A stretch of 39,270 nt of DNA from Escherichia phage 285P. Position numbers and translations under genes: made by a program. This document shows positions 1 through 39,270 of this stretch, piece after piece. The notes beneath the pieces were generated by a model. It did no database searches and was not told the DNA's origin. It saw only the letters and a list, made by a program, of their open reading frames with translations. Within the stretch, counting starts at the first letter, position 1. Every line of letters begins with the position of its first letter. The DNA is taken from sequence record NC_015249.1; one strand, given 5' to 3'.

Positions 1-145
1 TGCTTATGTTTTCAGTGACAATAGGCTTCGTCCAAAGGGGAATCACTATCTTACTCTCTTTATCAGTCTCTGAGTAATGAGAGAGACAAGTAGAATCGAC
101 TGAGTGCCTATAGTGCCTTAAAGGTGGCTGATAGTCAATAGCCTT

Positions 146-168
146 TAATGCGACTCACTATTGAGAGA
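146..168 (+). promoter_or_regulatory. T7-type phage promoter, left-most (phiOL-like); TAATGCGACTCACTATTGAGAGA
   Basis: Seen in sequence: 17/23 core match to T7 consensus TAATACGACTCACTATAGGGAGA, located upstream of the host early promoters as phiOL is in T7. Confidence 0.55.
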
Positions 169-2792: not shown

Positions 2793-5444
2793 ATGACTAA
2801 CGTAATCAACGCACCAAAGAACGACTTCTCTGACATCGCTAACGCAATCATGCCATACAACATTCTGGCTGACCATTACGGCGCACAGCTTGCAGCTACG
2901 CAGTTACAGCTTGAGCACGAAGCGCACACTGAGGGTGAGAAGCGTTTTCTTAAGGCAATGGAACGTCAAATCAAAGCGGGTGAGTTCGGTGATAACGCAG
3001 TGGCTAAACCGCTCCTGTCATCTCTCGCACCGAAGTTTATCGAAGCGTGGAACACTTGGTTCACCGAGGTGGAAGCGAAGCGTGGCAAGCGTCCAGTAGC
3101 CTACAATCTGGTACAGAAGGTTGCACCTGAAGCGGCAGCTTTCATCACACTGAAGGTCACACTCGCTTGCTTGACGAAAGAAGAGTTCACCAACCTGCAA
3201 TCGGTCGCCACTAAGATTGGTCGCAGTATTGAGGATGAACTGCGTTTTGGTCGCATCCGTGACGAAGAAGCGAAGCACTTTAAGAACCACGTACAGGAGG
3301 CACTGAACAAGCGCGTTGGTATCGTCTACAAGAAAGCATTCATGCAAGCCGTAGAGGGCAAGATGCTTGATGCTGGTCAACTGCAAACCAAGTGGACTAC
3401 ATGGACACCTGAAGAATCAATTCACGTTGGTGTGCGCATGTTGGAACTGCTCATCGGGTCTACTGGTCTCGTTGAGTTACACCGCCCGTTCGCTGGTAAC
3501 GTTGAGAAGGATGGCGAGTACATCCAACTGACCGAACAATATGTAGACCTGCTGTCTAAACGTGCTGGTGCACTGGCTGCAATCGCTCCGATGTATCAGC
3601 CTTGCGTGGTCCCTCCGAAGCCTTGGACTTCTCCGGTTGGTGGTGGCTATTGGGCTGCTGGTCGCAAGCCTCTCTCTCTGGTTCGTACTGGTTCCAAGAA
3701 GGGACTTGAGCGTTACAACGATGTGTACATGCCTGAAGTTTACAAGGCCGTGAACATCGCACAGAATACTCCTTGGAAGATTAACAAGAAGGTTCTGGCA
3801 GTGGTCAACGAGATTGTGAACTGGAAGCATTGCCCGGTTGAAGATGTTCCTGCTCTGGAACGTGGTGAACTGCCTGTCAAACCTGAAGACATCGACACGA
3901 ACGAGGCATCTCTCAAAGCGTGGAAGAAAGCGGCCTCCGCAATCTACCGCAAAGAGAAGGCACGAGTGTCACGCCGCATGAGCATGGAGTTCATGTTAGG
4001 TCAGGCCAATAAGTTCGCACAGTTCAAAGCTATCTGGTTCCCAATGAACATGGACTGGCGCGGTCGTGTGTATGCTGTGCCGATGTTTAACCCGCAAGGC
4101 AACGACATGACCAAAGGCTTGCTGACGCTCGCTAAAGGTAAACCAATCGGTGTCGATGGGTACTACTGGCTGAAGATTCACGGTGCTAACACTGCTGGCG
4201 TGGACAAGGTGGACTTTGCAGAACGCATCAAGTTCATTGATGACAACCATGAGAACATCATGAGCGTAGCTGCTGACCCGATTGCTAACACTTGGTGGGC
4301 CGAGCAAGACTCTCCGTTCTGCTTCCTCGCGTTCTGCTTCGAGTATGCAGGTGTGCAACACCACGGGATGAACTACAACTGCTCTCTTCCGCTGGCGTTC
4401 GATGGTAGCTGCTCCGGTATTCAGCACTTCTCCGCGATGCTCCGTGATGAGATTGGTGGTCGTGCGGTTAACCTGCTGCCGAGCAAGGAAGTACAGGACA
4501 TCTACCGCATCGTTGCGGAACGTGTGAACGAAATACTGAACCAAGATGTTATCAACGGGACCGACAACGAAGTAGAGACCGTGACCAATAAGGACACCGG
4601 AGAAATCACTGAGAAGCTCAAGCTGGGAACTAAGGAACTGGCTGGTCAATGGTTAGCATACGGTGTTACTCGTAAGGTGACTAAGCGTTCCGTTATGACC
4701 TTGGCGTATGGTTCCAAAGAGTACGGCTTCCGTGACCAAGTGCTAGAGGATACCATTCAGCCAGCTATCGACGATGGCAAGGGCTTGATGTTCACTCAAC
4801 CGAACCAAGCGGCTGGCTACATGGCTAAACTGATTTGGAACGCGGTAACGGTGACAGTGGTCGCAGCGGTTGAAGCAATGAACTGGCTGAAGTCTGCGGC
4901 TAAACTTCTAGCTGCTGAAGTCAAGGACAAGAAGACCAAAGAGGTTCTCCGTAAGCGCTGTGCGGTACATTGGGTTACTCCTGATGGCTTCCCGGTCTGG
5001 CAGGAATACAAGAAGCCAGTACAGACCCGCTTGAACCTGATGTTCTTAGGCCAGATTCGTCTACAGCCTACCGTGAACACCAACAAGGATAGCGGGATTG
5101 ATGCTCGTAAACAGGAGTCAGGTATCGCACCTAACTTTGTTCACTCAATGGATGGTAGCCACCTGCGCATGACCGTGGTTCGCTCCAACGAGGTCTACGG
5201 TGTGGAATCGTTCGCACTGATTCACGACTCCTTTGGTACTATCCCTGCTGATGCTGGCAACCTGTTTAAAGCAGTGCGTGAAACGATGGTGAACACCTAT
5301 GAAGAGAACGATGTACTAGCAGACTTCTATGAGCAATTTGCTGACCAGTTGCACGAATCACAGCTTGACAAGATGCCTGAGATGCCAGCTAAAGGTTCTC
5401 TGGACCTGCAAGAAATCCTTAAGTCAGACTTTGCGTTTGCCTAA
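2793..5444 (+). CDS. 1: T7-type single-subunit DNA-dependent RNA polymerase
   Basis: 883 aa (same as T7 RNAP); long identical stretches to T7 gp1 as recalled (PMFQPCVVPPKPWT, DGSCSGIQHFSAMLRDE, HDSFGTIPADA, C-terminal FAFA). Confidence 0.97.
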   Translation: MTNVINAPKNDFSDIANAIMPYNILADHYGAQLAATQLQLEHEAHTEGEKRFLKAMERQIKAGEFGDNAVAKPLLSSLAPKFIEAWNTWFTEVEAKRGKRPVAYNLVQKVAPEAAAFITLKVTLACLTKEEFTNLQSVATKIGRSIEDELRFGRIRDEEAKHFKNHVQEALNKRVGIVYKKAFMQAVEGKMLDAGQLQTKWTTWTPEESIHVGVRMLELLIGSTGLVELHRPFAGNVEKDGEYIQLTEQYVDLLSKRAGALAAIAPMYQPCVVPPKPWTSPVGGGYWAAGRKPLSLVRTGSKKGLERYNDVYMPEVYKAVNIAQNTPWKINKKVLAVVNEIVNWKHCPVEDVPALERGELPVKPEDIDTNEASLKAWKKAASAIYRKEKARVSRRMSMEFMLGQANKFAQFKAIWFPMNMDWRGRVYAVPMFNPQGNDMTKGLLTLAKGKPIGVDGYYWLKIHGANTAGVDKVDFAERIKFIDDNHENIMSVAADPIANTWWAEQDSPFCFLAFCFEYAGVQHHGMNYNCSLPLAFDGSCSGIQHFSAMLRDEIGGRAVNLLPSKEVQDIYRIVAERVNEILNQDVINGTDNEVETVTNKDTGEITEKLKLGTKELAGQWLAYGVTRKVTKRSVMTLAYGSKEYGFRDQVLEDTIQPAIDDGKGLMFTQPNQAAGYMAKLIWNAVTVTVVAAVEAMNWLKSAAKLLAAEVKDKKTKEVLRKRCAVHWVTPDGFPVWQEYKKPVQTRLNLMFLGQIRLQPTVNTNKDSGIDARKQESGIAPNFVHSMDGSHLRMTVVRSNEVYGVESFALIHDSFGTIPADAGNLFKAVRETMVNTYEENDVLADFYEQFADQLHESQLDKMPEMPAKGSLDLQEILKSDFAFA

Positions 5445-5451
5445 CGGAATC

Positions 5452-5474
5452 TAATACGACTCACTATTGGGAGC
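5452..5474 (+). promoter_or_regulatory. T7-type promoter (phi1.1A-like) TAATACGACTCACTATTGGGAGC
   Basis: Seen: perfect -17..-2 match, T at -1; begins 8 nt after the RNAP stop. Confidence 0.8.
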
Positions 5475-5486
5475 CTTCGGGCTTCC

Positions 5487-5533
5487 TAAACTTTAAGATA
5501 CTTTAAGTTCTAACTTTAAGAGGAAACACAATC
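5487..5533. other. AT-rich segment with 3x CTTTAAG repeats; candidate primary replication origin region
   Basis: Seen: repeats at 5491, 5501, 5514. Inference from T7, where the primary origin is the AT-rich region just downstream of phi1.1A/B. Confidence 0.3.
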
Positions 5534-6091
5534 ATGTTTACTTTAATCACTTCAGTAGGCGCTCTCGTATCAACCATTCTTGCAGCAACATACTATAATC
5601 GTTCAAAGGTATTTCTCACTAAGCTAATCAAAGAAGAGAAGAACTCTCATGCACTCAAAGAGAGACTTGAAGATGGATGGCGAGATAAGCAGGAACTAGC
5701 TGGTCGAATCCGTACCTTAGAGTTCGAACAACAATATGACATGTCGAACCAACGAGAACTCATTGAGCGTCTACGCGCTGAGGCAGTGGAGTACCGCAAG
5801 GAACTTAAAGAGGCAAAGAGTACCATCCGTGAGTACACTCACAGTGACATCACGTCTATCAAGTTTACTGCTCACATCCCGGATGCTGGATGGAAGCGCA
5901 CTGAGTTCAAGCTAGGCATAGGGTCTTGTGGCAAAGAGGTTACGTGTTTACACTGGAAAGAACAGTCGGACCGCTATCTGCTGACACAGACGTGCACTGA
6001 TGGTGAGCGCAAAGAGTTCACCTATTATAAGAAAGACGTAGCTGGTCGCATTGAGATTGCACGTAAGGTCGCAGACAATACGACTCACTAA
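5534..6091 (+). CDS. hypothetical membrane-anchored coiled-coil protein (inserted between gene 1 and 1.1; possibly T3 gene 1.05-position)
   Basis: 185-aa ORF with AAGAGGA RBS; N-terminal TM-like helix (FTLITSVGALVSTILAATYY), charged heptad-like helical region, Cys-containing C-terminal domain. T7 has no gene here. Confidence 0.6.
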   Translation: MFTLITSVGALVSTILAATYYNRSKVFLTKLIKEEKNSHALKERLEDGWRDKQELAGRIRTLEFEQQYDMSNQRELIERLRAEAVEYRKELKEAKSTIREYTHSDITSIKFTAHIPDAGWKRTEFKLGIGSCGKEVTCLHWKEQSDRYLLTQTCTDGERKEFTYYKKDVAGRIEIARKVADNTTH

Positions 6092-6098
6092 TGGGAAA
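6076..6098 (+). promoter_or_regulatory. T7-type promoter (phi1.1B-like) CAATACGACTCACTAATGGGAAA
   Basis: Seen: overlaps the last codons of ORF 5534-6091; -2/-1 are AT. Confidence 0.7.
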
Positions 6099-6105
6099 CA
6101 CTGAA

Positions 6106-6149
6106 AGTTAAACTCAAGGTCATCTACATGGTGGCCTTCATGATTAACT
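6106..6149 (+). promoter_or_regulatory. conserved RNase III-type hairpin element, copy 1 (R1.1-like)
   Basis: Seen: AGTTAAACT-CAAGGTCATC-loop-GGTGGCCTT-CATGATTAACT; inner 9-bp stem, outer AGTTAA/TTAACT stem; near-identical copies at 6623 and 13599. Confidence 0.55.
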
Positions 6150-6179
6150 GTCATTAACTACACAGAAGGAAATAACATT

Positions 6180-6329
6180 ATGCGTACCAACTTTGAACCA
6201 ACCACTAAGCGCAACAACGTAATCAATGAACACGGTGCTGAATGGCAGGAACGTAAAGACCGCATGAAGAAACGCCACAAGACACAACGTGGCAACGCTG
6301 AGAAACGTAATTGGAAGGAGGCACTCTAA
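6180..6329 (+). CDS. 1.1: gene 1.1 small basic protein
   Basis: 49 aa (MRTNFEPTTKRNNVINEHGAEWQERKDRMKKRHKTQRGNAEKRNWKEAL); basic, resembles T7 gp1.1; stop overlaps the gene 1.2 ATG. Confidence 0.6.
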   Translation: MRTNFEPTTKRNNVINEHGAEWQERKDRMKKRHKTQRGNAEKRNWKEAL

Positions 6330-6601
6330 TGGGTCGCTTATACAGTGGTAACTTAATAGCATTCAAGGATGCCATCGCTAGACTTAAAGAAGACCACGAT
6401 GCAAATGTGGTCGTTGAGACTTATCGCTATGAGGACTTCGCACAGCGTCGGGTGGTAGCCGGAGAGACACTTCGAGTGACCTTGCGGAATGGCTTAATGC
6501 TGACCGCTAAGTGTTTCGAACAGTCAGACGAAGACGTTCGCTGTAATGCACAGACTGAATGGCTCCGTAAGGTTCACAGTGACCTGAAGCACTGGAAGTA
6601 A
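6329..6601 (+). CDS. 1.2: gene 1.2 protein (host dGTPase inhibitor homolog)
   Basis: 90 aa from MGRLYSGNLIAFK...; N- and C-terminal blocks (MGRLYSGNL, DEDV, HSDLKHWK) match T7 gp1.2 as recalled. Confidence 0.8.
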   Translation: MGRLYSGNLIAFKDAIARLKEDHDANVVVETYRYEDFAQRRVVAGETLRVTLRNGLMLTAKCFEQSDEDVRCNAQTEWLRKVHSDLKHWK

Positions 6602-6621
6602 TACGACTCACTATTGCGAAA
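6599..6621 (+). promoter_or_regulatory. T7-type promoter (phi1.3-like) TAATACGACTCACTATTGCGAAA
   Basis: Seen: overlaps the gene 1.2 stop; +2 is C (weaker initiation region). Confidence 0.65.
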
Positions 6622-6622
6622 G

Positions 6623-6666
6623 AGTTAAACTAAAGGTCATCTTAATGGTGGCCTTTGTGATTAACT
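6623..6666 (+). promoter_or_regulatory. conserved RNase III-type hairpin element, copy 2 (R1.3-like)
   Basis: Seen: AGTTAAACTAAAGGTCATCTTAATGGTGGCCTTTGTGATTAACT. Confidence 0.55.
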
Positions 6667-6702
6667 TTTGATTACTTAATAACCAACAATAGGAGTTCCA
6701 TC

Positions 6703-14088: not shown

Positions 14089-14107
14089 ACTTTAAGGAGT
14101 AAACACA

Positions 14108-17731: not shown

Positions 17732-17754
17732 CAATACGACTCACTATTGAGAGG
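17732..17754 (+). promoter_or_regulatory. T7-type promoter (phi6.5-like) CAATACGACTCACTATTGAGAGG
   Basis: Seen in sequence. Confidence 0.7.
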
Positions 17755-17805
17755 GGTGCCTATATGATACCTACTTTAAGTTTAACTTTAAGGAGAACAT
17801 TAATT

Positions 17806-18051
17806 ATGTTAACCCCTATCAAGAAGTATATGGAGAACCCACAAGATATTCCTAACGTTCCTCGTGCAACTATGGAGTACCTACAGGTTCAATACAATGC
17901 TGGATATGCTATTCAGTCAGGACTAATCAACCGATTGAAACAGGCTGGATGGTCTGAAAGCTACATCGCTGGGTTCCTCGCGGGTCTCAACTATGCGTCT
18001 CAAACTCTGGACGACATGGAGGCAATCCGTAAGGAACAGGCTGAGTCCTAA
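17806..18051 (+). CDS. 6.5: gene 6.5 protein
   Basis: 81 aa from MLTPIKKYMENPQDIPNVPRATMEYLQV; matches T7 gp6.5 N-terminus as recalled. Confidence 0.75.
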   Translation: MLTPIKKYMENPQDIPNVPRATMEYLQVQYNAGYAIQSGLINRLKQAGWSESYIAGFLAGLNYASQTLDDMEAIRKEQAES

Positions 18052-38559: not shown

Positions 38560-38582
38560 TAATACGACTCACTATTGGGAAG
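38560..38582 (+). promoter_or_regulatory. T7-type promoter (phiOR-like) TAATACGACTCACTATTGGGAAG
   Basis: Seen in sequence; rightmost promoter. Confidence 0.8.
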
Positions 38583-38738
38583 GGCACCCTAAGACAACTT
38601 AAAGACACTTATAGACTGCATATGCAAAGTGCATACTTAGTGACTACTCTTAGAGACCCTTACAGTGAGGGATGATAGTAATAGTAATTACATCCCCACT
38701 ATCAGTGTAACCATCAAGTATAACAAGGAGGACGCTCT

Positions 38739-38984: not shown

Positions 38985-39225
38985 ACCCTTATGTACCCTC
39001 TATGGTCTACAGGGTCTCTTATGGTCTCACCTTATGATAGAGCCTCTGTGGTTAACCTTATGAGACTTGATGTACCCCCTTTAAGAATCCTACAGAAAAA
39101 TCTGAGAGGGTATCTCATAGTTCATACAAAGTGTTTCCCCCCTATGGCCTCCTTCAGTTCACCCAAAGAGTCGGCCCCTTATGGTAACTTATGGTTTACG
39201 TGAAGTCAATCCTTATGTGAGACAT
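38985..39225. repeat. right-end array of dispersed short direct repeats (C)CTTATG(G/A), at least 7 copies
   Basis: Seen: CTTATG at ~38988, 39018, 39030, 39056, 39177, 39188, 39213; typical of T7-family regions adjacent to the terminal repeat. Confidence 0.5.
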
Positions 39226-39270
39226 TGGGTTAACTCTAGGTGTTACCACTAGATATGGTGCTTAGTGATA

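Follow-up and report, generated by a model that had tools for sequence, protein, structure and literature searches.

The segment at positions 5452–5533 of the Escherichia phage 285P genome, in which the phi1.05 promoter runs into the leader of gene 1.05, appears to be the orthologue of the primary replication origin of phages T3 and phiYeO3-12 and of the AT-rich origin at promoter phi1.1B of phage T7. It probably acts as both a replication origin and an expression leader, with initiation proposed by homology to T7, which would place the start of DNA synthesis in 285P near 5.5 kb. The element is of an already known kind, namely a textbook T7-group promoter with an AT-rich origin in the T3-type (phi1.05) layout. 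It combines the attributes of T7-group origins (an upstream promoter, easily melted A+T-rich DNA, and homology to annotated or described origins) with those of T7-group mRNA leaders (a stable, conserved hairpin at +1 and a fusion of the AACTTTAAG motif, Shine-Dalgarno sequence, and start codon). The whole stretch of DNA that was analysed, 39,270 nucleotides of record NC_015249.1, is termed the window below.

The 1.1 kb around the element share 98.5% identity with Enterobacter phage PZJ0206 and 93–96% identity with phages BA14, PhiV-1, and Kvp1, all of which belong to the genus Berlinvirus (Studiervirinae, T7 group). The 101 bp at 5440–5540 are 100% identical to deposited phage genomes. Judged by these sequence similarities, the window is a BA14/Kvp1-like Berlinvirus. 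A fuzzy promoter scan of the whole window found 14 T7-type promoters on the + strand, which match the annotation of BA14 one-to-one: phiOL, phi1.05, phi1.1, phi1.3, phi1.6, phi2.5, phi4.3, phi4.7, phi6.5, phi9, phi10, phi13, phi17, and phiOR. At the ends of the window (1–150 and 39070–39270) there is no terminal direct repeat, and phiOL lies at 146 compared to 353 in BA14. A terminal repeat of roughly 190 bp is therefore probably missing from the assembly, whose first base would lie some 200 bp inward of the true left end.

The element starts 8 nt past the stop codon of gene 1 (Table 1). Its promoter, which has two mismatches to the T7 consensus, is directed rightward and lies directly upstream of the AT-rich block. 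The +1 position falls at 13.9% of the window, right after gene 1, and the corresponding elements of T3, phiYeO3-12, and T7 are placed likewise. In full, the element reads TAATACGACTCACTATT, followed from +1 by GGGAGCC-TTCG-GGCTTCC-TAAACTTTAAGATACTTTAAGTTCTAACTTTAAGAGGAAACACAATC-ATG. No open reading frame in the window's list occupies it, and scans for sigma-70 promoters and intrinsic terminators found nothing within it. An Rfam search of 5300–6400 at a permissive threshold returned no match. GC skew is positive throughout the window with no inflection near 5.5 kb, and is uninformative on the origin.

Table 1. Features of the phi1.05 element and its neighbourhood, in window coordinates
Feature	Position	Strand	Basis
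Gene 1, T7-type single-subunit RNA polymerase, 883 aa	2793–5444	+	ORF list; gene 1 / RNA polymerase in BA14 and Kvp1
phi1.05 promoter TAATACGACTCACTATTGGGAGC, +1 at 5469	5452–5474	+	Fuzzy promoter scan; homologous 23-mers annotated phi1.05 in BA14, Kvp1, and K11
5′-terminal hairpin, stem 5469–5475 / 5480–5486, loop UUCG 5476–5479	5469–5486	+	RNAfold
AT-rich leader, 74.5% A+T, three ACTTTAAG octamers (5490–5497, 5500–5507, 5513–5520)	5487–5533	+	Sequence, duplex stability, conservation
Shine-Dalgarno-like AGAGGA for gene 1.05, fused to third repeat (AACTTTAAGAGGA)	5519–5524	+	Sequence; comparison with T7 phi10 leader
Gene 1.05, 185 aa	5534–6091	+	ORF list; protein alignments to T3 and K11 gp1.05
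Nearest top-strand gp4 primase pentamer TGGTC, possible leftward priming site (weak)	5701–5705	+	Primase-site scan
phi1.1 promoter, +1 at 6093	6076–6098	+	Promoter scan; annotated phi1.1 in BA14 and Kvp1
R1.1-type RNase III processing hairpin in phi1.1 leader	6102–6153	+	Fold of -17.8 kcal/mol; leader alignment of T7, T3, and K11

The origin assignment derives from comparison with phages in which origins have been annotated or described. In the T3 reference record, a rep_origin feature at 5682–5758, named “primary origin of DNA replication”, directly follows phi1.05, and the phiYeO3-12 record carries a rep_origin from the phi1.05 start site. The Berlinvirus records of BA14 and Kvp1 annotate promoters and no origin. 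In T7, replication initiates at phi1.1A/phi1.1B and depends on T7 RNA polymerase (PMC8373140). A preliminary description of this DNA had proposed a candidate origin here and suggested alignment to the T7 and T3 origin regions as a check. The phi1.05 leader of the window aligns with both, namely with the T3 origin stretch and with T7 phi1.1B plus its AT-rich region, while the phi1.1 leader aligns with T7 phi1.1A plus R1.1. The candidacy is thus strengthened by homology to the annotated origins of T3 and phiYeO3-12 and to that of T7, but the T7-centred framing in which it was first put does not hold.

In that framing, the first promoter was taken for phi1.1A and the second for phi1.1B, with an ORF inserted between them. 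The first promoter is phi1.05 in BA14, Kvp1, K11, and T3, and its leader matches that of T7 phi1.1B; the second is phi1.1 in the relatives, and its leader matches T7 phi1.1A/R1.1. From these leader homologies it follows that the phi1.1A and phi1.1B labels had been swapped, and that the order of the two units in T7 is opposite to that in T3, K11, and BA14. The supposed inserted ORF is gene 1.05, which is conserved and homologous to T3 and K11 gp1.05. Insertion of an ORF into a T7-like origin was rejected, as the two promoters are separated by a gene in T3, K11, BA14, Kvp1, and fPS-26 alike. By leader homology, T7 differs by permutation and not by simple insertion.

The element resembles its T3 and phiYeO3-12 counterparts in being the first promoter after gene 1 and in lying upstream of gene 1.05, and the order of promoter, +1 hairpin, ACTTTAAG-type repeats, gene 1.05, phi1.1, R1.1, and gene 1.1 is shared by all three. 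The T3 element is built as GGGAGAC-TACTTAAG-GTCTCCC, then ACTTTAAGACACTTTAGG, and runs on into gene 1.05. The promoter is of T7-type specificity in the window but T3-type in T3 and phiYeO3-12, and the hairpin loop is the 4-nt UUCG compared to 6–8 nt in the other two phages. The three exact repeats of the window lie upstream of the ATG, while the T3 repeats extend into coding sequence. Gene 1.05 has a long “fusion” form in the window, and its product is only 90 aa in T3.

The gene 1.05 product shares 47% identity with T3 gp1.05 over its C-terminal 70 aa, and 45% identity with K11 gp1.05 (“gp1.05 fusion protein”) over 124 of its 185 aa. It matches PHROG 8103 and 6440, which are families without an assigned function. 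Its N-terminal segment is hydrophobic (MFTLITSVGALVSTILAATYY), its middle is charged and probably coiled-coil, and its C-terminal domain of roughly 70 aa is the part in common with the short T3 gp1.05.

The likeness to the T7 primary origin lies in a phage RNA polymerase promoter followed, after gene 1, by an AT-rich block with AACTTTAAG and CCTTAAG motifs, and the mechanism is presumed to be identical, with initiation primed by transcription. T7 differs in that R1.1 lies between two promoters spaced by 75 bp and that gene 1.05 is absent. The window has a single promoter at the AT-rich block, and its R1.1-bearing promoter, phi1.1, is past gene 1.05, with 624 nt between the phi1.05 +1 and its own. 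The T7-specific layout of two tandem promoters on either side of R1.1, which is not defining for T3, is thus not found in the window. The +1 hairpin is also weak in T7, at -3.6 kcal/mol compared to -12.4 kcal/mol in the window.

The phi1.1 promoter overlaps the final codons and stop of gene 1.05. The hairpin homologous to the one in its leader is labeled RNase III site R1.1 in the T3 record, and in the leader alignment the core AAACTCAAGGTCAT...GGTGGCCTT.ATGATT is invariant in the window, T7, T3, and K11. The phi1.3 leader (GAGTTAAACTAAAGGTCATCTTAATGGTGGCCTTTGTGATTAAC, 6616–6680) contains a near-duplicate of the R1.1 hairpin sequence, which is presumably the counterpart of R1.3, an RNase III site in the T3 annotation.

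The phi1.05 transcript begins with a hairpin that RNAfold predicts to have 7 bp, including one G-U pair, a cUUCGg loop, and a free energy of -12.4 kcal/mol, just as the preliminary description had read it: GGGAGCC-UUCG-GGCUUCC, with a 7-bp stem at +1. Only 0.3% of random 28-mers from the window reach -12 kcal/mol or below. The 71-nt stretch overall is not unusually structured (z = -0.68), and it is the hairpin alone that stands out. Among relatives, all 21 distinct hairpin variants fold at +1 or +2, with energies of -3 to -17 kcal/mol. Stem positions change on both sides of the pair at +5 (G-C, G-U, A-U, C-G), +6 (C-G, A-U, G-C), and +8 (C-G, U-A, U-G), and the hairpin is kept through such compensatory changes across several genera with differing promoter specificities. 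Since many of these pairs are G-U, which would be A-C mismatches on the other strand, they point to selection of the structure in the + strand RNA and not as a DNA cruciform. These comparisons were made by folding each sequence separately and tabulating by position from +1; RNAalifold found no structure in a MAFFT alignment of 15 hairpin variants, in which MAFFT had misaligned stems of unequal length.

Selection acts on the stem and not on the loop. Loops in the relatives may be UACG, UUAG, UUG, CAAG, AAGG, UUUG, AUG, or 6–8 nt long. The C(UNCG)G signature of UNCG tetraloops is not conserved, and cUUCGg occurs in the window and a few relatives. Furthermore, hairpins of -8 kcal/mol or below are found at the transcript start of 6 of the 14 window promoters (phi1.05, phi2.5, phi4.3, phi9, phi10, and phi17), compared to 3.4% of background 28-mers. 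The hairpin is therefore a generic feature of T7-group transcripts and is not specific to origins, contrary to its earlier inclusion in the origin element. As the scan found no intrinsic terminator in the element, it is not a host-type terminator either. Its most likely role is protection of the mRNA 5′ end. In addition, it may strip the first 18 nt of the transcript from the template, and so confine any hybrid to the AT-rich block.

Downstream of the hairpin, the AT-rich block with its triple CTTTAAG repeat is also as first described. Its copies lie at 5490, 5500, and 5513, and its A+T content is well above the 51.3% of the window overall. The ACTTTAAG copies are spaced by 10 and 13 nt, and a fourth, partial or degenerate copy, TACTTTAA, lies at 5539–5546 within the first codons of gene 1.05. 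At window sizes of 40–80 bp, 5487–5533 ranks second to fourth among the least stable duplexes of the 39 kb. The A+T fraction at +21 to +80 after phi1.05 is 0.75, the highest for the 14 promoters, and of the five duplex segments with the lowest stability, one is at phiOR and the others follow phi6.5, phi1.05, phiOL, and phi13.

The heptamer CTTTAAG occurs 25 times across the window compared to 4.2 expected, frequently as a single copy at ribosome-binding sites and inside genes. Three exact copies together are found only in the phi1.05 block, and the only other cluster of at least three degenerate copies in the window follows phiOL. Three degenerate motifs fall within 45 bp in 32% of random placements, and non-randomness is therefore argued from the exact copies and from conservation. 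Two or more ACTTWAAG copies spaced by 10–13 nt occur only after phiOL (5), phi1.05 (3 and one partial), phi6.5 (2), and phiOR (2). It has been established that the secondary origins of T7 include phiOR and phi6.5 (PMC8373140, citing Rabkin and Richardson 1988), and because arrays follow these two promoters, the origin reading is supported. The distribution of the arrays fits an origin-associated role on top of the ribosome-binding role of the last copy.

The arrays differ in their details. The one after phiOL (146) occupies 202–253 and consists of five ACTNTAAG-type repeats with exact 10–11 bp spacing and no gene start after it. The phi6.5 leader (17749–17810) is the least stable duplex in the window and contains two ACTTTAAG copies 12 nt apart, and the phiOR leader (38577–38620) contains about 2.5 copies of AAGACAACTTA with a period of 10. 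Tandem Repeats Finder detected the phiOL (period 10) and phiOR arrays and missed 5490–5520, where spacing is irregular (10 and 13 nt). The T7 secondary origins phi6.5 and phiOR, along with phiOL, resemble the element in having a promoter, DNA of low stability, and ACTT(T/A)AAG repeats; the T7 phi6.5 leader contains an almost identical block, ACTTTAAGATTTAACTCTAAGAGG. They differ from it in genome position; phi6.5 and phiOR also have fewer repeats, and the phiOL array is not followed by a gene start.

Conservation was examined in 80 IMG/VR loci encoding related polymerases and in GenBank records. The preliminary description had held that a repeat block not conserved in relatives would count against an origin. 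The block is invariant in 13 distinct relatives, while the hairpin sequence and the spacers drift. The common order after gene 1 is promoter, +1 hairpin, 2–6 heptamers at 10–13 nt spacing, AGAGG, and ATG. Promoter, hairpin, and repeats are conserved in Berlinvirus, Helsettvirus, Teetrevirus, and K11-like phages, with the heptamer in the form CTTTAAG in Berlinvirus, Helsettvirus, and T3 and as its reverse complement CTTAAAG in K11-like phages. Teseptimavirus (T7 and relatives) has up to eight near-copies of the heptamer (at most 1 mismatch) after phi1.1B. Repeat number varies among close relatives, with 3 copies in the window, 4 in FE44, 5 in Berlin, and 6 in Yepe2.

The layout is kept either before gene 1.05, as in BA14, Kvp1, and K11-like phages, or directly before gene 1.1. 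The latter is the case in Berlin, Yepe2, FE44, A7, and ETEP21B, in which gene 1.1 comes next and gene 1.05, phi1.1, and R1.1 are absent. Three K11-like genomes (L048, L061, L073) have instead lost the promoter, hairpin, repeats, and gene 1.05 and keep phi1.1, R1.1, and gene 1.1. Because these three genomes do without it, the element can be dispensed with in nature. Deletion mutants of T7 without the primary origin likewise survive by means of secondary origins.

Deletion variants thus occur in two directions among the loci: in some, the promoter, hairpin, and repeats are fused to gene 1.1, and in others phi1.1, R1.1, and gene 1.1 stand alone (L009, L007, L012, L013, L085, L086, and L088 versus L048, L061, and L073 together with L053 and L074). 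Their break points lie in ribosome-binding-site sequences that resemble each other, a pattern suggestive of recombination between the leaders. In one further locus (L029, IMGVR_UViG_3300009034_000458), T7 gene 1 runs into a truncated phi1.1A, to which CCGGATCC and unrelated sequence are attached. This contig has the appearance of a clone made for T7 polymerase expression (e.g., a DE3-type insert) and not of a phage.

In the proposed mechanism, phage RNA polymerase would start at 5469 and transcribe into the unstable ACTTTAAG block, where 5487–5533 is the candidate zone for unwinding and for the transition from RNA to DNA. A short transcript or R-loop would then be passed to the phage DNA polymerase, with the gp4 helicase-primase assisting, and DNA synthesis would proceed rightward. 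Takeover of the transcript by the phage DNA polymerase with the help of the helicase has been described (PMC5997990; bioRxiv 10.1101/2024.07.25.605042). Leftward synthesis would be primed later by gp4 loaded on the displaced top strand. The nearest TGGTC pentamer is 232 nt from the +1, at a background density of 4.7 per kb across the window, and the scan of the window for primase sites found no enrichment beside the element. The final ACTTTAAG copy forms part of the gene 1.05 ribosome-binding site.

Transcription-initiated replication of this kind has been discussed for T7, ColE1, and mitochondrial DNA together (PMC5997990). ColE1 RNA II and the mitochondrial light-strand promoter likewise supply an RNA polymerase transcript as the primer for DNA polymerase. 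However, these origins have no sequence or structural kinship with the element, and they need processing by RNase H or a G-quadruplex, while a T7-type origin works by direct hand-off in the AT-rich zone.

An alternative, which seems unlikely, is that the element is an expression leader only. The hairpin would stabilize the 5′ end of the phi1.05 mRNA, ACTTTAAG would be a translation-enhancer or ribosome-binding sequence, and replication would be independent of the element. Each part of the element has a plausible role of this kind. The +1 hairpins at other promoters agree with it, as does the lack of the element in three K11-like phages. All relatives have AGAGG and ATG fused to the last repeat; in the window the fusion of AACTTTAAG, Shine-Dalgarno sequence, and start codon reads AACTTTAAGAGGAAACACAATCATG at 5512–5536, and AACTTTAAG also stands directly against the Shine-Dalgarno sequence at the genes at 14090 and 17786. 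The T7 phi10/gene 10 (pET) leader is built in the same way, in that a +1 hairpin (GGGAGACC-ACAAC-GGTTTCCC) and an AT-rich spacer precede a fusion of AACTTTAAG, Shine-Dalgarno sequence, and ATG, and its AACTTTAAGAAGGAG is the same fusion of repeat and Shine-Dalgarno sequence as that of gene 1.05. It differs in having one copy of the motif, and its established use is in gene overexpression and not as an origin. The sequence UUAACUUUA is the “epsilon” enhancer of Olins and Rangwala.

Several observations stand against a role in expression alone. The homologous stretches of T3, phiYeO3-12, and T7 are annotated or described as origins, and the 2–6 copies in close relatives, with up to eight near-copies in Teseptimavirus, exceed what a ribosome-binding site needs. 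The phased five-copy array after phiOL has no gene start to serve, and the T3 copies continue within coding sequence, inside the annotated origin.

It is quite improbable that the repeats are iteron-like, that is, that a phage or host protein specifically binds to, or is loaded at, the near-palindromic CTT(T/A)AAG, which recurs roughly every helical turn, and that the repeats are more than easily melted DNA. The invariant heptamers among drifting spacers and hairpin sequences, the 10–13 bp spacing in all lineages, the reverse-complement CTTAAAG at the same place in K11-like phages, and the confinement of arrays to four promoters speak for it. However, the T7 group is not known to have an initiator protein, the copy number is free to vary among close relatives, and single copies of the motif are also frequent within genes and at ribosome-binding sites. 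The remaining alternative, a functionless tandem duplication made by slippage near a ribosome-binding site together with a chance palindrome, would account for the differing copy numbers of close relatives and for the unremarkable structure of the 71-nt region, but it is hardly credible and has already been largely refuted by conservation: with a block invariant in 13 relatives and a hairpin kept through compensatory changes in 21 variants from several genera, the element is therefore not a product of chance.

For annotation, a rep_origin feature could be carried over from T3 to Berlinvirus records, which mark promoters only. For the biology of the T7 group, the choice of origins is usually explained by A+T-richness alone. 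Phased ACTTWAAG arrays coincide with promoters known or suspected as T7 origins, and conservation of the heptamer extends over Studiervirinae genera with polymerases that recognize different promoters. Given these arrays and the deletion variants, in which one of the two units (origin or R1.1) is retained, one may ask if it is the heptamer sequence itself or only the A+T content that matters. The CTT(T/A)AAG repeats after phiOL, phi1.05, phi6.5, and phiOR might conceivably be a sequence-specific origin determinant, such as a signal for the phage RNA polymerase to pause or release, or a site where the helicase-primase is loaded, although this is a long shot. If true, such a determinant would account for the use of only some T7-group promoters as origins.
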